In this document: piece by piece, positions 10,031-56,178 of the stretch
Position numbering within the stretch: position 1 is the first letter of the stretch
Layout of the letters: every line of letters begins with the position of its first letter
NCBI GenBank assembly: GCA_900769765.1
Contig: CAAGHW010000005.1
Location: 13,838 to 77,837, forward strand
Origin: Bacteroidaceae bacterium
Lineage (GTDB): Bacteria; Bacteroidota; Bacteroidia; Bacteroidales; Bacteroidaceae
Direction of reading: 5' to 3'
DNA length: 64,000 bases
Notes under the pieces: model-generated
Told to the model about the DNA's origin: nothing
Databases searched by the model: none
What the model saw: the letters and a program-made list of their open reading frames with translations, nothing else
Translations under genes and position numbers: made by a program

Positions 10031-10912
10031 ATGCAACTGATTGACGGAAAAGCCGTTGCGGCACAAATAAAAAAAGAGATTGCCGAAGAGGTCGAGAAAA
10101 TAATCTCAAACGGAGGCAAACGCCCCCACTTGGCGGCAATACTTGTAGGACATGACGGTGGCAGCGAGACATACGTTGCCAACAAGGTAAAATCATGCGA
10201 AGAGTGCGGTTTTACATCCACTCTCATACGCTACGAAGCAGACATCACCGAAGAGGAGTTGCTGAAAAAGGTCGATGAGCTGAACAACGACCCCGATGTC
10301 GACGGTTTCATTGTACAGCTACCGTTGCCCAAGCATATCGACGAGCAGAAAGTAACCGAAGCCATCGACTACCGCAAGGATGTCGACGGATTCCACCCCG
10401 TCAATGCCGGCCGCCTTGCCATAGGATTGCCATGCTTCCTATCGGCAACACCAAACGGCATAATGGAGCTGCTTGCACGTTACAACATAGACACCAAAGG
10501 AAAGAAATGTGTTGTGCTTGGCCGCAGCAACATCGTGGGCAAGCCAATGGCAAACCTTATGATGCAGAAGAGCATTCCCGGTGATGCCACAGTAACCGTA
10601 TGCCACAGTCACACAGTGAACATAGCCGAAGAGTGCCGTCAGGCCGACATCATAATTGCAGCACTCGGACAGCCACATTTCCTGAAAGCCGACATGGTGA
10701 AGGAGGGAGCTGTTGTCATCGACGTGGGCACCACACGTGTTCCCGATGCCACACGCAAGAGCGGATTCCGCCTTTGCGGTGACGTTGATTTCGACAATGT
10801 AGCACCCAAATGTTCATACATCACCCCTGTTCCAGGAGGTGTAGGCCCCATGACCATAGTATCGCTGATGAAAAACACCCTGCTTGCAGGAAAGCGCGAA
10901 ATTTACAGATAA
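10031..10912 (+). CDS. folD: bifunctional methylenetetrahydrofolate dehydrogenase/cyclohydrolase
   Basis: 293 aa. Typical FolD sequence ([37 protein letters not shown]). Confidence 0.96.
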
Positions 10913-12041
10913 AACCTTGAAAACAAGAGTCCTCATAGCAATATTGCTGTTCTGCACTATGCCACACATAGCATTGACGCAGGACGGCAATACTTTTTTA
11001 CAGAAGAGCAGACTTATTTTTGCCGGCGATGTGATGCAACACACCCTGCAGCTCGAAGAGGCCAAAAGAGATGACGGCACATACAGCTACAGCCATTGGT
11101 ACAGACACATCACAAAGGAGATAAAGAGCAACAACCTTGCCATTGCCAACCTTGAGACACCTATATACAAGGAAGGTTTCAGCGGTTACCTTTCGTTCTG
11201 TGCCCCCGACAGTTTCCTTTATGCCATACGCGATACAGGATTCGACGTGATACTTTTTGCCAACAACCACTGCTTCGACAAAGGCAAACGCGGAGCCATG
11301 CACACCTTGGACCTGCTCGACTCGTTGAAGTTATCACACTGCGGCGTATATCGCAACATTCAGGAGCGGGAGGAACGCTACCCCCTTATAATAGACAGCA
11401 ACGGAATAAGGATAGCCATCCTCAACTACACCTATGGCACAAACGGCAACAACATCCCCGAGCCGATGGTAGTGAACCTGATTGACAAGCCCGTCATCGA
11501 AGAGGATATATTCAAGGCAAAGAGCAAAGGGGCAGACGTTATAATAGCCTGCATGCATTGGGGAGATGAATATGTGAGGATACCGCCTGCAAGAGTGCAG
11601 GAGATGAGCCGTTGGCTGATAGAGCAAGGCGTTGACCATATCATAGGCAACCATCCGCACATAATACAGCCCATTGAGATTAGGGAGAGCGTCGAGACAC
11701 CCGACAAGCACGCTGTGGTATATTCAACAGGAAACTTAGTATCGAACATGTCAATGCGAGGCACCGACGGTGGAATGATGATTAAGATGGAGCTGAAAAA
11801 GATAATGAACTACACCCGCGCAGCATCGCTCGGATATCTGCTGACATGGATAGCCCCCAAAAAGAGCAACGGAGAGAGGGATTTCACTATTCTGCCGGCA
11901 TCAACAACCGTATGCCCCGAGAACAGCAATGCCGAGAGAAAGCTGAAACTGTTCCTTGATGATACAAAAAGACTTTTCAGCGAAAACAACAAAGGAGATA
12001 TCGTGGAGTTTACAGCCGATACGGTGTATCTCACTCCTTGA
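10884..12041 (+). CDS. CapA-family (PGA_cap) metallophosphatase-like protein
   Basis: 385 aa. Motifs [31 protein letters not shown] and GNHPHIIQP. The ATG at 10884 overlaps folD by 29 nt. An in-frame TTG at 10917 ([13 protein letters not shown]...) would give a cleaner signal peptide and may be the real start. Confidence 0.75.
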
Positions 12042-43302: not shown

Positions 43303-43329
43303 TTGCTACGCAATATATCGAAGAGAAGA

Positions 43330-45210
43330 ATGATTGTTTGTATAGCAGAGAAACCGAGTGTAGCAAAGGAGATTGCCGATATTTTAGGGGCAAGAAGCCG
43401 ACACGATGGATACTACGAAGGAAACGGATACCAGGTTACCTGGACATTCGGTCATCTTTGTACTCTTAAAGAGCCACACGACTATACCCCCATGTGGCAA
43501 CGGTGGAGTCTGAGCAGCTTGCCGATGATACCGCCACGGTTCGGTATAAAACTCATTAACGACAAGGGCATTGAGAAGCAGTTCGCCATAATAGAACGTA
43601 TTATGCAGAGTGCCGATATGATTGTGAACTGCGGTGATGCCGGCCAGGAGGGAGAACTTATCCAGCGTTGGGTGATGCAAAAGGCGCAGGCAAAGTGCCC
43701 TGTAAAGCGTCTATGGGTATCGTCACTTACCGAAGAGGCTATACGCGAAGGATTTGCTACACTAAAGGACCAGAGTGAATATCAGGCATTGTATGAGGCC
43801 GGATTGAGCCGTGCCATAGGCGACTGGTTGCTTGGCATGAATGCGACACGCCTGTACACCATAAAATACGGCAAGAACAGACAAGTGCTCTCCATAGGAC
43901 GTGTACAAACCCCTACCCTTGCGCTGATAGTAAAACGTCAACAGGAGATAGAGAATTTCGTTCCACAGCAATATTGGGTTCTTAAGACAACCTATCGCGA
44001 CACCGTATTCAACGTAATACAGAAAAGAAGCGAAGATGAACTGATGGCGGACATTGAGAAACAGAAAGAAAAAGCCGAGAAAAAAGGCATAGCCTTTGAT
44101 ATGTCCGAAGCGTGGAAAAAAGCCGAAGAAAGCAACATCGGTATTGCCCCCATTGCCAACAACGATGAAGGTCTGGCAATCCTAAACAGAATAAAAGATT
44201 TGCCATTCACCGTAACATCAGTTGACAAGAAGAACGGCAAGGAACTGCATCCGTCGCTCTACGATTTGGGTTCACTGCAGAGCGAATGCGACAAGAAATA
44301 TGGGTTGTCTATCGATGTAACACTGCAGACAGTACAATCGCTATACGAAAAGAAGGTAACCACATATCCACGTGTAGACACGACCTTCCTGAGCGACGAC
44401 ATATACCCCAAATGTGCAAATATCCTTAAAGGATTGCGCGATTATCAAGCACTTACAATGCCATTGCTCGATAAACCGCTTATAAAATCGAAGAAAGCCT
44501 TCGACAACAAGAAGGTTACCGACCACCATGCCATAATCCCTACAGGAGTATACCCACAGGGACTTACCGACATTGAAAAAAAGGTATACAACCTTATTGT
44601 CCTACGCTTTATTGCAGCATTCTATCCCGAATGCAAATATTGCACCACAACCGTACAGGGAGAGAGTGGCGGTATTCTGTTCAAAACCTCGGAAAAAGCA
44701 ATCACAGACCCTGGTTGGAAAGTTGTTTTTGCAGGAGAACCATTCGAAGAGAACGAAGCGAAATCCATGCCCGCATTCAGCGTCGGAGAAAGCGGACCAC
44801 ACCTCCCCGAACTGATGGAAAAATGGACACAACCACCCAAGCCATATACCGAGGGAACATTGGTACGAGCAATGGAAACCGCCGGTAAATTCGTTGACGA
44901 CGAAGAACTGCGCGATGCCATGAAAGAGAACGGAATAGGACGTCCGGCAACCCGTTCCGAAATCCTTAAGACACTCTACAAACGCAACTACGTTGTAAAA
45001 GAGAAAAAGAACATTGTAGCAACAGAAACAGGCATAGAACTTATAGGCCTGATAAGGAACGAACTGCTAAAAAGTGCCGAACTAACAGGCCGTTGGGAGA
45101 AGAAACTTCGCGACATCGAGAAACGGCAGTACGAAGCAAAGACCTTCATCGAAGAGCTGAAAGAGATGTTGAACGAAGTGGTGAATGACGTTCTACGCGA
45201 TAACAGATAA
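43330..45210 (+). CDS. topB: DNA topoisomerase III
   Basis: Toprim N-terminus MIVCIAEKPSVAKEIA, type IA core, catalytic Tyr region (TYPRVDT). Start taken at the ATG at 43330 rather than the track TTG at 43303. Confidence 0.9.
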   Translation: MIVCIAEKPSVAKEIADILGARSRHDGYYEGNGYQVTWTFGHLCTLKEPHDYTPMWQRWSLSSLPMIPPRFGIKLINDKGIEKQFAIIERIMQSADMIVNCGDAGQEGELIQRWVMQKAQAKCPVKRLWVSSLTEEAIREGFATLKDQSEYQALYEAGLSRAIGDWLLGMNATRLYTIKYGKNRQVLSIGRVQTPTLALIVKRQQEIENFVPQQYWVLKTTYRDTVFNVIQKRSEDELMADIEKQKEKAEKKGIAFDMSEAWKKAEESNIGIAPIANNDEGLAILNRIKDLPFTVTSVDKKNGKELHPSLYDLGSLQSECDKKYGLSIDVTLQTVQSLYEKKVTTYPRVDTTFLSDDIYPKCANILKGLRDYQALTMPLLDKPLIKSKKAFDNKKVTDHHAIIPTGVYPQGLTDIEKKVYNLIVLRFIAAFYPECKYCTTTVQGESGGILFKTSEKAITDPGWKVVFAGEPFEENEAKSMPAFSVGESGPHLPELMEKWTQPPKPYTEGTLVRAMETAGKFVDDEELRDAMKENGIGRPATRSEILKTLYKRNYVVKEKKNIVATETGIELIGLIRNELLKSAELTGRWEKKLRDIEKRQYEAKTFIEELKEMLNEVVNDVLRDNR

Positions 45211-52795: not shown

Positions 52796-52803
52796 TACAT
52801 TTG
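52796..52803 (+). promoter_or_regulatory. -7 promoter box TACATTTG for the ATPase/DUF4435 unit
   Basis: Perfect TAnnTTTG match 28 nt upstream of the ATG at 52831. It overlaps the track TTG start at 52801, which argues against that start. Confidence 0.45.
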
Positions 52804-52830
52804 TGCATAGTCAGAAATAATGTACAGCCT

Positions 52831-53655
52831 ATGGAGAAGATGGCACAATACATAAAGAGCATTGAGATTGACTCTTTGTGGAGCAACCGCAAGCATATCT
52901 ATTGGGAGTTGCGCCCCGACGTAAATATCCTGAGTGGCAGCAACGGAGTGGGAAAGAGCACCATAATAAACCGTTCGGCACGCCATCTTAAGGTTATGCG
53001 CAAAGGGCTCATAACAACAAACCCCGAAGACGGAGTACATGTAAAATTCTACCCCGAAGATGCCACAAGCATACATTTCGATGTAATAAGCAGCATCGAC
53101 CGTCCAATAATGAACAGTGAGATGCTTGAAAAGATTCCCGGCGCAGACATACGTACCGAACTCGATTGGCAGCTCTACAATCTGCAACGCCGCTATCTCA
53201 ACTACCAGGTAAACGTAGGCAACCGCATCATATCGTTGCTCACATCGGGCAATCCCGACGACCAGCGTCTTGCCACAGAGCTGACAAAACCAAAGAAACA
53301 GTTCCAGGACCTTGTCGATGAACTGTTCGCCCCCACGGCAAAGACAATAGCACGCGACAGCAACGAGATATTCTTTAACCAATATGGAGAGACCATATCG
53401 CCATATATGCTCTCATCGGGCGAAAAGCAGATGCTTGTCATACTGCTCACCGCATTAGTGCAGGAGAACCGCCCGGGAGTGATGCTCATGGACGAGCCCG
53501 AGATTTCGTTGCACATTGAGTGGCAACAGCGCCTTATAAGCCTTGTACGCACGCTAAACCCGAACACTCAGATAATATTATGCACCCACTCGCCAGCAAT
53601 AGTCATGGACGGATGGATGGATGCCGTTACCGAGATTGAGGATATAACAAAATAA
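52831..53655 (+). CDS. short SMC/ABC-type ATPase (AAA_21/AAA_23-like), candidate AriA-like defense ATPase
   Basis: Walker A GSNGVGKST, signature LSSGEKQ, Walker B VMLMDEPE, H-loop THSP. RecF/SMC-like N-terminus (IKSIEIDSLW...VNILSG). No TM domain or transporter partner. Confidence 0.85.
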   Translation: MEKMAQYIKSIEIDSLWSNRKHIYWELRPDVNILSGSNGVGKSTIINRSARHLKVMRKGLITTNPEDGVHVKFYPEDATSIHFDVISSIDRPIMNSEMLEKIPGADIRTELDWQLYNLQRRYLNYQVNVGNRIISLLTSGNPDDQRLATELTKPKKQFQDLVDELFAPTAKTIARDSNEIFFNQYGETISPYMLSSGEKQMLVILLTALVQENRPGVMLMDEPEISLHIEWQQRLISLVRTLNPNTQIILCTHSPAIVMDGWMDAVTEIEDITK

Positions 53656-53672
53656 ACACCGACAAATGAGAT

Positions 53673-54668
53673 ATGAAAAGGCTCACTGAATATCTCAATT
53701 CAAATTTCATAGAGGCAGCCAATGCACTGCGACCAAAGAGAGCTGCACAACGCATCATAGCATACGTCGAGAGCTATGATGACATATCTTTCTGGCGTTC
53801 GGTATTTAACGAATACGAAAGCGACAAGGTACATTTCGAGATAATGTTGCCTGCACGCACCAAACTCACAAAAGGCAAGAAACAGGCAATGATGAACTTG
53901 CTTGGCAAGGCATACGGCCGTAACATGATAGCCTGCGTGGACAGCGACTACGACTACTTGTTGCAAGGTGCTACAAGCACATCGCGACAGATGCTCGAGA
54001 ACAGATACATACTGCACACATACGCCTACTCAATAGAGAACTTCCGCTGCTATGCCGACAGCCTGAAACAGGTTTGCGTGCTATGCACACAGAACGACAC
54101 TAACGTAATAGATTTCAAAGAGTTCTTCAAACTGTACTCGCGCATATGCTACCCGTTGTTCGCATGGAACATACTGCTATACCGCAAGCACGACACCAAG
54201 ACAATGAGCATGCTCAAGTTCTGCGACATTGTACGCCTGACATCGTTCACAACAGGCAACCCTGCATACTCACTGCAACAGCTGAGCAACCGCGTGAACC
54301 ATAATATTGCACTTTTAGAGAAAGGATTCCCCGAGCTGATAAAGGAATGCGAATATCTAAAACAAGAACTCGAGCAGCTTGGCATTCACCCCGACGAGAC
54401 ATATTTTTATATACAGGGACACCATATAATGAATGGTGTTGTATTGCGAGTGATGCAACCAGTATGCCGACACCTGCGTAGCAAACGCGAAGAGGAGATA
54501 GAACGCTACGCATACCACCGCCAACAATACAACAACGAGCTGGCATCGTACCGCCATAGCCAATGCGATGTAGCGATGATGCTGAGCAAGAACACCGACT
54601 ACAAGAACGCGACGCCCTATCTGAGATTAAAGACAGATATTGAAAAGCTGTTGGAAACAATAAAATAA
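53673..54668 (+). CDS. DUF4435 (Toprim/OLD-nuclease-like) domain protein, candidate AriB-like effector
   Basis: 331 aa. Motif series AYVESYDD (Glu33), ACVDSDYD (Asp90/92/94) and YAYSIENF (Glu122), as I remember for DUF4435. Starts 17 nt after the ATPase stop. Confidence 0.8.
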   Translation: MKRLTEYLNSNFIEAANALRPKRAAQRIIAYVESYDDISFWRSVFNEYESDKVHFEIMLPARTKLTKGKKQAMMNLLGKAYGRNMIACVDSDYDYLLQGATSTSRQMLENRYILHTYAYSIENFRCYADSLKQVCVLCTQNDTNVIDFKEFFKLYSRICYPLFAWNILLYRKHDTKTMSMLKFCDIVRLTSFTTGNPAYSLQQLSNRVNHNIALLEKGFPELIKECEYLKQELEQLGIHPDETYFYIQGHHIMNGVVLRVMQPVCRHLRSKREEEIERYAYHRQQYNNELASYRHSQCDVAMMLSKNTDYKNATPYLRLKTDIEKLLETIK

Positions 54669-54702
54669 ATGAGATGAAGTTGAATTCAACTTCATCTCAT
54701 TT
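54667..54702. terminator. 36-nt perfect palindrome; bidirectional terminator after the DUF4435 gene and the convergent lipoprotein gene
   Basis: AAATGAGATGAAGTTGAA/TTCAACTTCATCTCATTT, followed by ATTTTG. Confidence 0.65.
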
Positions 54703-54720
54703 ATTTTGATATTAAATCTT

Positions 54721-55413
54721 TCATTTACATACAGGGCGAACTGGGCGGCCGTTACAACGGTCACCTGTATTATTGTTTGCTGATGGATAACCACTATAAA
54801 AATATAAGACTAAAGCATGACGGTCTATTTCACCACGCAAGTTGCATGACCAATAACTTCCTTCTTCACCATCCATGTAACGCCCGTCGTCACTACGATA
54901 ACCTGTAGCAGGAAGAAATATGCTATTGTCGTTGACACGACTCTTTACAACATAGCCATAAACACCGTTTAGGGTAGTCCACTCCCAATCACAGTTTTCT
55001 ACAAGTTCCTTTTGTTCTTCATGGGTTGGCATACGCCAATTGCTGCCCCATTTTACATGAGCCACGTCATCTTCCATATCAAGTACATCTTTACCATCAG
55101 GAGTTCCATAGCTGGTACTGAGGCAATATTTTTTCATAGAACTTGGAGTGTCTCCGCTATATTTATAGTATTCCCAGTCATATATTGCCTTTTCCTCGGT
55201 CTCGCCCCAAGCAAAATAGCCACCGAACTCTTCGGGCACTGTCGCACCGACATTACATGAAGCCCATTTCAAGCCACTTGGCAAGCCGAGATCAACAGCC
55301 ACATAAGGTGAGGCAGGAGGAGTATAACCATCTTCATCACCGGTGTTACAAGAAACAATAAACAAAGAGAGAGTCATTATAAACCCGAAAGAGAATAAAA
55401 ATACTTTTTTCAT
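54721..55413 (-). CDS. lipoprotein with DUF1566 / FISUMP-like (Fibrobacter major paralogous domain-like) fold
   Basis: 230 aa. Lipobox LFIVSC. GLKWASCNVGA, YFAWGE, WRMPTHEEQKEL, GSYWS and C-terminal GRPVRPVCK resemble that family. Confidence 0.7.
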   Translation of the reverse strand: MKKVFLFSFGFIMTLSLFIVSCNTGDEDGYTPPASPYVAVDLGLPSGLKWASCNVGATVPEEFGGYFAWGETEEKAIYDWEYYKYSGDTPSSMKKYCLSTSYGTPDGKDVLDMEDDVAHVKWGSNWRMPTHEEQKELVENCDWEWTTLNGVYGYVVKSRVNDNSIFLPATGYRSDDGRYMDGEEGSYWSCNLRGEIDRHALVLYFYSGYPSANNNTGDRCNGRPVRPVCK

Positions 55414-55484
55414 AATTGATTATATTTAATTGATTGTTTTTGGCACAAAAAAGACAATAAGCCGAAGCGTAAACATCGACAACG

Positions 55485-55515
55485 CAAATATAGGATATTG
55501 CATTATCTTAACAAA
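55485..55515 (-). promoter_or_regulatory. promoter TTTG-N19-TATATTTG for the lipoprotein gene
   Basis: On the minus strand: -33 TTTG (55512-55515) and -7 TATATTTG (55485-55492), about 70 nt upstream of the ATG at 55413. Confidence 0.5.
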
Positions 55516-55542
55516 GTTTTTCAAAAAAAACATCTTCGAGCA

Positions 55543-55564
55543 GGCGAACCCTGCCCCTACGGTG
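55543..55564 (+). repeat. GC-rich repeat copy 1 (GGCGAACCCTGCCCCTACGGTG)
   Basis: 17 of 22 nt identical to 56078-56099. Shared core GCCCCTACGGT. Confidence 0.6.
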
Positions 55565-55589
55565 GCGCAATCCACAATTGCGTACGCTC

Positions 55590-55611
55590 GGGCAGACACG
55601 CTGGTCTGCCC
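55590..55611. repeat. REP-like GC-rich hairpin GGGCAGAC-ACGCTG-GTCTGCCC
   Basis: 8-bp perfect stem followed by ATAC. A degenerate relative, GGGCGGACGGACCCTG, lies at 55639-55654. Confidence 0.6.
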
Positions 55612-55768
55612 ATACAATAGACGACTGTTGCATGATTTGGGCGGACGGACCCTGTTTTCAATCTCCTTCCGCAACTTCGTTGCTCGCCTCTCTTACACGC
55701 AAGAGGGACAGTTTATTTACGCGTACAAGTGTAATCCCCAAAATTAAACCGGCACCGTTTGAGAAACA

Positions 55769-55890
55769 GTTATTATTAGTGGCAAATCAGGAAAAGAATG
55801 GGGGATGTCTGAGCGGTGTGTTATGCGTTGCTGGAAATTAGCGTAAAGCGAGTTACCCCATTCCCTGATTTGCCACGTTAAGATAATAAC
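55769..55890. repeat. 122-nt composite inverted repeat / long hairpin (8+13+8 bp helices, 51-nt loop)
   Basis: - Left arm: GTTATTAT-TA-GTGGCAAATCAGG-AAAA-GAATGGGG.
- Right arm: CCCCATTC-CCTGATTTGCCAC-GTTAAG-ATAATAAC. Confidence 0.7.
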
Positions 55891-55979
55891 GGCAAGCGAA
55901 AAGCGAATGAGTGACGTTGTTTACAACTCACGAGCAAGAGCTTTGAGCGACTTTCGAAACTGTGTGCCGGGCGCTTTTG

Positions 55980-56004
55980 TTACTTTTCACGCGATGAAAA
56001 GTAA
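55980..56004. repeat. 10-bp-stem hairpin TTACTTTTCA-CGCGA-TGAAAAGTAA
   Basis: Direct reading. No flanking U-run on either strand. Confidence 0.5.
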
Positions 56005-56072
56005 AGAGAGAAAGACTACAAAAAGAATATAAGACAAAGGTGTAAAGGTTAAAAGTTGCGGTAAAATATATT

Positions 56073-56099
56073 GGGCGGGCCGACCCCGCCCCTACGGTT
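56073..56099 (-). terminator. GC-rich hairpin GGGCGGG-CCGAC-CCCGCCC plus repeat copy 2; plausible trkH terminator
   Basis: On the minus strand the hairpin is followed by AATATATTTT, about 80 nt after the trkH stop. It contains repeat copy 2 (56078-56099). Confidence 0.45.
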
Positions 56100-56178
56100 A
56101 CGATAAACAAGATAACTACGATTACTGCGTTTGCCTACCTACGGCGGATTTTTTCTGTATTCAAGAATTGGCAATACC

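Follow-up and report, generated by a model that had tools for sequence, protein, structure and literature searches.

PARIS is an anti-phage system, characterized in Escherichia coli, in which an ATPase, AriA, guards a Toprim nuclease, AriB (PMC11464382, PMC10802264, PMC12409363). The PARIS system of a P4-like satellite of E. coli B185 (PDB 8UX9 and 8V45-8V49; class 4 OLD-like) is encoded by adjacent, co-directional genes for the ATPase and for a DUF4435 protein. AriA carries two insertions, of which IS1 (residues 122-180) contributes pore loops implicated in trigger recognition, while IS2 (residues 242-289), together with F230, F234, F238 and Y304, turns the coiled coil into a larger bundle, through which dimers assemble into a hexamer (PMC11464382). 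The binding site of Ocr is the AriA coiled-coil (CC) interface (PMC10802264). Here, a two-gene unit of the same layout was studied in a stretch of 64,000 nucleotides from a Bacteroidaceae bacterium (GCA_900769765.1, contig CAAGHW010000005.1, positions 13,838 to 77,837 of the forward strand), the whole of which is referred to as the window. The first open reading frame, ORF1 (52831-53655, plus strand), starts with ATG and encodes a short AriA-type ABC/SMC-family ATPase of 274 aa, with a head domain and a single helical hairpin. The second, ORF2 (53673-54668, plus strand), encodes a DUF4435 protein of 331 aa, as judged by Pfam, the PADLOC AriB models and an AlphaFold2 (AF2) prediction. The two are co-directional and separated by a 17-nt spacer, with a stop codon between them, exactly where an earlier note on this DNA had placed them. 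The unit is read here, with somewhat better than even confidence, as a chromosomally fixed, vertically inherited, short-AriA module of the PARIS family (class 4 OLD-like), in which a dimer of ORF1 heads would restrain the ORF2 nuclease until a signal arrives.

The published detection rule for PARIS calls for adjacent genes, one with an AAA_15 match of at least 32 bits or an AAA_21 match of at least 27 bits and the other with a DUF4435 match of at least 27 bits (PMC9122126). The pair, with its 17-nt gap, scored 63.4 bits for AAA_15, 69.2 bits for AAA_21 and 159 bits for DUF4435, and both proteins matched the curated AriA and AriB profiles of PADLOC better than those of other ATPase/nuclease defence families. 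Operationally, the locus is a PARIS system. The proposal of a PARIS-like ABC ATPase plus DUF4435 unit, made in the earlier note, thus holds at the family level, with AriA also the closest solved structure to ORF1. PADLOC-DB v2 contains a pair of short PARIS models, PDLC04164 (AriA, 253 positions) and PDLC04165 (AriB, 289 positions), that represent the pair's own sub-family in the database. ORF1 matched PDLC04164 best (7.5e-56), and did so from end to end (ORF1 5-273 to model 3-251); the next family, PtuA (6e-26), was ~ 30 orders of magnitude worse and was matched mainly through the C-terminal lobe. For ORF2, AriB models were the sole PADLOC matches (PDLC02983, 6e-53; PDLC04165, 7e-36). Note that PDLC04164 and PDLC04165 are bioinformatic models, and that the AriB model on which ORF2 scored better was not PDLC04165 but the generic one derived from DUF4435, PDLC02983.

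Like PARIS AriA, ORF1 carries the full ATPase motif set, all on the plus strand, with Walker A and the signature at the positions reported in the earlier note. In a set of 79 sequences comprising the window and its orthologues, the lysine (K42) of the Walker A motif or P-loop, GSNGVGKST (52936-52962), was invariant (79/79), as it was in 48/48 members of the wider family. The ABC signature LSSGEKQ (53410-53430) was invariant at L194, S195, G197, E198 and K199, the Walker B motif VMLMDE (53479-53496), which is followed by the D-loop PEISL, at D221 and the catalytic E222, and the H-loop THSP (53584-53595) at H253. Alignments with the Bacteroides orthologues (~ 47-50% identity) showed the same ATPase residues unchanged, and the signature residues were invariant in the wider family as well. 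The Walker A lysine had been numbered K52, a position that it occupies only when translation is begun at an upstream TTG (52801); from the ATG at 52831, preferred as the start because most homologues are 274 aa long, it is K42. The Pfam matches of ORF1 were to AAA_21 (8e-19), AAA_15 (4e-17) and also SMC_N, all much stronger than a weak match to ABC_tran (29 bits), and NCBIfam gave sub-threshold matches alone (PtuA, restriction-associated ATPases and transporters).

The closest sequences to ORF1 in the PDB were the AriA chains 8ux9_B and 8v45_A (phmmer, 2.3e-16). The alignment comprised two blocks, ORF1 8-49 to AriA 6-46 and ORF1 192-266 to AriA 364-436, between which ORF1 has 142 residues (50-191) where AriA has 317 (47-363). 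An AF2 model of ORF1, built from an alignment of 48 sequences of short ATPases of this family, was of high confidence (predicted local distance difference test, pLDDT, 91.7; predicted template modelling score, pTM, 0.90) and showed an ABC head with one antiparallel helical hairpin at residues 110-169 (53158-53337, plus strand; helices 110-138, 142-151 and 153-169, pLDDT >90). The top 10 Foldseek matches of this model were AriA chains (E ~1e-12, TMq 0.56-0.63), followed by PtuA chains from Septu and retron systems. The hairpin forms a minimal coiled-coil stub where AriA has a coiled-coil/four-helix bundle with IS2. Overall, ORF1 has 274 aa compared with the 464 aa of AriA, and because only 142 residues stand where AriA has 317, the alignment and the model indicate that both IS1 and IS2 are absent and that the hairpin alone is retained. 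The earlier remark that ORF1 has no long coiled-coil insertion is borne out by the same two lines of evidence. The ATPase family to which ORF1 belongs comprised 306 clusters (50% identity) at E <= 1e-30, and its longer members (300-350 aa) carry a variable insertion of 20-70 aa after the position of ORF1 residue ~ 73, so that the window's ORF1 is a minimal form of the family.

ORF2 matched DUF4435 over almost the entire model (2.2e-46; positions 2-234 of 238), and its Toprim acidic residues fall inside this match. Toprim motif 1, E33-S-Y-D-D37 (53769-53783), was invariant at E33 and D37 in 80/80 orthologues and in the Bacteroides orthologues, and motif 2, the DxD sequence D90-S-D92 (53940-53948), was invariant at both aspartates in 80/80 orthologues. 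A third acidic element, E122 in the motif YAYSIENF (54036-54038), was glutamate in 77 and aspartate in 3 of the 80; E33, D37, D90, D92 and E122 were all invariant in alignments that included the Bacteroides orthologues (~ 47-50% identity). All three elements lie on the plus strand, the first two at the coordinates first given for them. The acidic residues of AriB are E26, D30, D88, E90 and E122 (PMC11464382), and the spacing of E33/D37, D90/D92 and E122 in ORF2 mirrors theirs, which suggests, by spacing and not by alignment, a one-to-one correspondence. The AF2 model of ORF2 (pLDDT 83.6) comprised an N-terminal alpha/beta domain, with a Toprim part of low confidence (pLDDT ~ 45-80), and a confident C-terminal helical bundle; AriB likewise has an alpha/beta N-domain and a helical bundle (PMC10802264).

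The distribution of the pair was explored by an ORF2-anchored scan of species-representative genomes, which returned 136 relatives in all and 80 loci, a sample selected on the presence of ORF2. These loci came from metagenome-assembled genomes of uncultured Bacteroidaceae/Bacteroidales, most of them named from ruminant or other mammalian gut samples. ORF1 adjoined ORF2 in 79 of the 80, the lone exception being cut by a contig end, and the gaps between the two genes were mostly 15-42 nt; the linkage of a short ATPase with a DUF4435 gene, which the earlier note had put forward for survey, is therefore found in other genomes. The gene order in ~ 60-68 of the 80 loci was that of the window, namely FBPase(class 3)-RpoN-Udk-like-[ORF1-ORF2]-TrkH-TrkA-Dxs. 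Because the first sample had been selected on ORF2, a second scan of metagenomes was anchored on the neighbouring Udk-like gene, giving clade loci of 77-98% identity. Of these loci, 21 extend upstream of the Udk-like gene; all 21 carry the pair, and no empty site, that is, the slot without the pair, was found among them. The presence/absence sample thus amounted to ~ 100 loci, and decayed or solo copies were seen at none of these.

Both genes are under purifying selection. The ratio of nonsynonymous to synonymous substitution rates (dN/dS) across ~ 80 species was 0.074 for ORF1 and 0.090 for ORF2, and that of six flanking housekeeping genes was 0.043-0.096. The median identity of ORF1 to the window was 88%, above that of Dxs, TrkA, Udk, TrkH and RpoN. 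The pairwise divergence of the pair tracked that of its flanks (rho 0.70-0.79), and ORF1 tracked ORF2 (rho 0.88). ORF1 and ORF2 are real, intact genes, conserved beyond chance, and in gut Bacteroidaceae the pair is inherited vertically like housekeeping genes, not carried on mobile DNA. In this it is unlike the satellite-borne PARIS of E. coli, being a fixed, syntenic and slowly evolving chromosomal locus.

The organization of the unit is that of an operon. A perfect TAnnTTTG box, TACATTTG, lies, as had been noted before, at 52796-52803 (plus strand), 28 nt 5' of the ORF1 ATG. TAnnTTTG is the -7 element of promoters recognized by the Bacteroides primary sigma factor. Among 78 orthologous loci, 65 have the element within 150 nt 5' of ORF1, mostly at 25-46 nt from the ATG, where ~ 5.5% would be expected to have it by chance. 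Across the whole window TAnnTTTG was not enriched (42 observed, 42.6 expected), and the box at TACATTTG is significant because it is kept across orthologous loci and not because of any enrichment in the window; scanning for generic sigma-70 promoters was not informative either, with 6 sites against 6.1 expected. At the other end, the palindrome that had been placed at 54667-54702 is indeed perfect but longer, extending over 54663-54706 (no assigned strand), and forms a bidirectional, terminator-like hairpin with a 20-22 bp stem, a 4-nt loop and a minimum free energy of -28 kcal/mol. It overlaps the ORF2 stop codon and sits between ORF2 and a convergent lipoprotein gene (54721-55413, minus strand). 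Outside the window, a hairpin of comparable strength was present in the closest relatives alone (L001, L006 and L013), and the hairpin is hence lineage-specific. The G+C content was 0.43-0.50 throughout the unit and equal to that of the flanks, in agreement with the earlier view that the unit is not compositionally foreign. Together, these features support the pair as a two-gene transcription unit with its own promoter and a palindromic terminator.

Other ATPase/nuclease systems share parts of this design. PtuA of Septu and retron systems (PDB 8EEA, 9N69, 9KJX and others) belongs to the same AAA_15/AAA_21 ABC-ATPase clade and is second-closest to ORF1 in both sequence and structure; however, the partner of ORF1 is a DUF4435 protein and not the HNH protein PtuB, and neither a reverse transcriptase nor a noncoding RNA is present. 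Membership of Septu was rejected on the grounds that the PtuA match was partial and weaker than that to AriA, that the NCBIfam PtuA score, 57.7 bits, fell below its cutoff of 500, and that there is no HNH partner. The logic of an ABC ATPase coupled to a Toprim nuclease is also shared by P2 Old and Gabija GajA (class 1/2 OLD) and by AbiL (AbiLi/AbiLii). Old and GajA each combine the ATPase with Toprim_Old in one polypeptide, whereas here the two activities would be split between two genes, with a DUF4435 nuclease. An OLD or GajA assignment was rejected since the ORFs are separate, ORF2 is not Toprim_Old and no GajA or Old model was among the PADLOC matches listed. AbiL was likewise rejected, as ORF2 had no AbiLii match and AbiLi was not among the best 25 of the 149 PADLOC matches of ORF1; the AbiLi matches that were seen were weak ones alone (2.4e-14 and 2.2e-15), to the ATPases of Bacteroides and of a Klebsiella plasmid.

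Relatives of the pair extend beyond the clade of the window. Cultured Bacteroides and Phocaeicola have orthologues of ~ 50% identity, and in B. fragilis, B. intestinalis and B. finegoldii (ATPase 275-282 aa, DUF4435 protein 333-338 aa) the pair occupies a second fixed slot, A2M-DUF1573-MeaB-EamA-[pair]-MscS, of which just the MeaB side is kept in B. pyogenes (ATPase 283 aa, DUF4435 protein 346 aa). Each of the two Bacteroidaceae slots has its own flanking genes, which adds to the case for an autonomous unit. In a sister clade, in which ORF2 is 62-65% identical, the pair adjoins dnaX. The same PADLOC sub-family is also found on genuine proteobacterial plasmids, where the ATPases are of 325-415 aa; PDLC04164 was likewise the best match of these and of the Bacteroides orthologue. 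One such plasmid, pK708696-4 of Klebsiella pneumoniae (NZ_CP141665.1, 4416 bp), is of the ColE1 type, with Rop and a helix-turn-helix protein, and its sole cargo consists of genes for a short AriA (325 aa) and a DUF4435 protein (325 aa) that overlap, as the two genes also do in B. finegoldii. The short sub-family is therefore mobile elsewhere and fixed in Bacteroidaceae, and its plasmid-borne members fit an origin in defence or addiction. The plasmid pK708696-4 is a compact natural case in which to test the short PARIS sub-family for activity in defence or addiction.

Two further PLSDB 'plasmid' records, NZ_OY725943.1 ('plasmid 41', B. finegoldii) and OY726067.1 ('plasmid: 93', Phocaeicola massiliensis), were rejected as evidence of mobility, both being typed as non-mobilizable. 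NZ_OY725943.1 carries chromosomal genes (alpha-2-macroglobulin, MeaB, MscS and a TonB-dependent receptor), and the two records look like mislabelled chromosome fragments. At a B. fragilis-like locus (L110), genes with Lin1244_N and WYL_2 domains (10473-11838) lie 2.5-4 kb downstream of the pair and are followed by a UpxY/UpxZ capsule locus; the Lin1244_N and WYL_2 genes are not present at the B. intestinalis and B. finegoldii loci. WYL proteins are often regulators of defence. In the sister clade (L071-L080), a conserved hydrophobic, membrane-like ORF of ~ 109-119 aa was found directly 5' of the ATPase gene and on the same strand in 9/9 informative loci (for example L078, 8762-9088; L080, 8730-9086; L072, 8764-9111). 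The window lacks it, and it has no significant Pfam match; in L070 its position is instead 2.7 kb downstream of the pair. For that clade it may represent a further, third component of the system, or simply a conserved neighbour.

On the favoured reading, that of a short-AriA PARIS module, the two genes would be transcribed as one operon from their own promoter, and ORF1, with its complete ABC catalytic set, would form an ATP-sandwich, head-to-head dimer that keeps the DUF4435/Toprim protein inactive. A signal, which in characterized PARIS is a phage protein, would alter the state of the ATPase and free ORF2; the freed protein would then dimerize into a metal-dependent nuclease, acting most likely on tRNA or other RNA, and so arrest translation and growth. 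In PARIS, activation is by anti-restriction proteins such as Ocr, and the AriB thus released cleaves tRNA. Homology, intact catalytic motifs, the operon structure, vertical inheritance and purifying selection are shown for the pair itself, whereas sequestration, the trigger, the RNA target and the anti-phage role are carried over from the E. coli system. Sensing would have to differ from that of E. coli PARIS because ORF1 is without IS1 and IS2, which also means that neither the hexameric trigger-sensing scaffold nor the Ocr-binding sites can be assumed; it would instead have to use another surface or ORF2 itself. The most variable segments, residues 51-80 and 91-100 of ORF1 and 211-240 of ORF2, are conceivable as specificity surfaces. 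A search of the window for tRNA genes and Rfam families, as a possible cognate RNA or decoy, found none.

A number of observations weigh against this reading. Apart from the lack of both AriA insertions, which sequence and model alike suggest, ORF2 is too divergent to be matched with the solved AriB. Single-sequence phmmer of ORF2 against the PDB gave no match, a 30-sequence ORF2 family profile gave spurious matches to YidC and Rop alone, Foldseek of the ORF2 model, with its low-confidence Toprim part, gave none in the PDB or BFVD at E <= 0.001, and the DUF4435 proteins of the proteobacterial plasmids provided no sequence bridge from ORF2 to AriB. The genomic context is that of a housekeeping locus: all ten neighbours within ~ 9 kb are housekeeping genes, no mobile-element genes were seen, no defence gene was seen within that distance, and sampled ORFs farther upstream are metabolic or housekeeping. 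No relative of ORF2 was found by tblastn in 50,697 phage records or among IMG/VR contigs, and there was no PHROGs family for it. A fixed housekeeping slot is unlike the placement of a typical defence system, and the rates of evolution of the two proteins are as low as those of the housekeeping genes beside them, with nothing to indicate arms-race diversification. Finally, no experimental study of the short-AriA sub-family was found in the literature searched. The context gives no support to an anti-phage or abortive-infection role, which is thus inferred from homology. The earlier expectation of an ordinary accessory defence module is weakened, the locus being conserved, syntenic and without defence neighbours; this conserved-core outcome, essentially one that the earlier note had itself named as refuting, lowers that expectation and does not lower the case for a PARIS homologue.

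Several of the same observations favour a different account, in which a PARIS/OLD-type pair was recruited in Bacteroidaceae for a routine task other than phage defence, for example tRNA or RNA turnover, a stress-induced translational shutdown, or a RecF/Rad50-like step of nucleic-acid repair. A core-like pair with no empty site, a second fixed slot across Bacteroides species, divergence that tracks the flanks with dN/dS in the range of the neighbours, the failure to find defence or mobile genes nearby or viral relatives, and the missing trigger-sensing insertions would all be expected of a domesticated housekeeping module. However, every family-level match is to a defence protein (AriA and AriB, then PtuA and MAD3), and the sub-family is also cargo of small proteobacterial plasmids, as is typical of defence and addiction genes. 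Moreover, the two Bacteroidaceae slots share no conserved partner gene, so that no pathway is indicated, and the presence/absence sample comprises ~ 100 loci, the first set of which was selected by the presence of ORF2. Some defence systems are, in addition, stably inherited. Domestication is regarded as unlikely, though it is the main rival. A related and similarly doubtful idea is that a PARIS-derived pair has shed the insertions for hexamer formation and trigger sensing and is now a fixed core module of the Bacteroidaceae, serving either as a 'hard-wired' innate immune sensor with a new mechanism or as a domesticated regulator of tRNA/RNA integrity. Under either version, a mobile abortive-infection system would have become a vertically inherited function of an entire lineage, in a dominant family of gut bacteria, which would be a rare event.

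The plasmid-borne relatives also bear on whether the pair is a selfish, toxin-antitoxin-like addiction module, with ORF2 as the toxin and ORF1 as the antitoxin, kept at a fixed chromosomal site since loss of ORF1 would be lethal and giving the host no benefit. The PDB label for AriA is 'AriA antitoxin', and PARIS has been grouped with toxin-antitoxin systems (PMC13139388); the two genes overlap or are otherwise tightly coupled, and a 4.4-kb ColE1-type plasmid with the pair as its sole cargo is what would be expected of a plasmid-stabilizing module. Addiction alone, however, would not protect a toxin from inactivation, whereas ORF2 is intact, with catalytic residues kept in 80/80 species and a dN/dS of 0.09, which implies host-level selection on the nuclease activity. 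Nor was a decayed or solo copy seen at the loci sampled, and addiction is considered improbable as the explanation of the pair. That ORF1 is the nucleotide-binding subunit of an ABC transporter beside an unrelated gene, as its weak ABC_tran match and one JGI annotation of a homologue ('ABC-type cobalamin/Fe3+-siderophore transport ATPase') might suggest, is effectively refuted by the lack of a permease or binding-protein gene at any of the ~ 100 loci, by NCBIfam transporter matches of 25-35 bits against cutoffs above 200, by a fold nearest to AriA and PtuA, and by the obligate linkage to DUF4435.

PARIS biology has so far been that of one satellite-borne E. coli system, which senses via an AriA hexamer built by insertions that ORF1 lacks. 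PARIS as a kind is already known, and the short sub-family has been modelled in PADLOC v2; the suggestion that the unit might be a minimal or distinct, uncharacterized subtype is thus weakened, the sub-family having been catalogued in 2023 as PDLC04164, although no experimental work on it was found. New here are the absence of IS1 and IS2 and the finding that, in many Bacteroidaceae species, the pair is fixed and syntenic and is constrained to the degree of housekeeping genes. The sub-family is abundant and strongly conserved in a dominant gut family, is carried by cultured, genetically tractable Bacteroides, and could reveal which part of PARIS is essential, docking of the nuclease on a head dimer or the hexamer scaffold, and how a minimal ATPase senses its trigger. 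If the pair is defensive, it would be a rare example of core immunity without turnover. In automated surveys, DefenseFinder and PADLOC would report 'PARIS' for all genomes of these lineages, which would make defence repertoires look larger than they are if the pair has another role. DefenseFinder has called PARIS in B. fragilis NCTC 9343 (PMC13139388), a call that may concern the orthologous pair, and no publication mentioning DUF4435 together with Bacteroides was found in the literature searched.

Among the ten neighbours, the lone PADLOC match was a domain-level one, of a 635-aa type IA topoisomerase (43303-45210, plus strand; Toprim and Topoisom_bac) to DpdF (3e-114). The match covers just the topoisomerase-like N-terminal third of the 1499-position model and no other Dpd genes were seen nearby, and this is probably a false defence call. 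The convergent lipoprotein gene downstream of ORF2 encodes a Lcl_C-like protein of 230 aa and occurs, whole or as a remnant, in just 5 of the 80 loci. Between it and trkH lies a gap of ~ 760 bp (55414-56178) that contains only short overlapping ORFs (82-105 aa) and has no Rfam match. The junctions that flank the pair vary between species: ~ 8 kb of lipoprotein-like ORFs are present in L043 and a 559-aa ORF in L031, and in L019 a 679-aa ORF is inserted between the Udk-like gene and ORF1. Despite these variable junctions, the pair itself is never disrupted.

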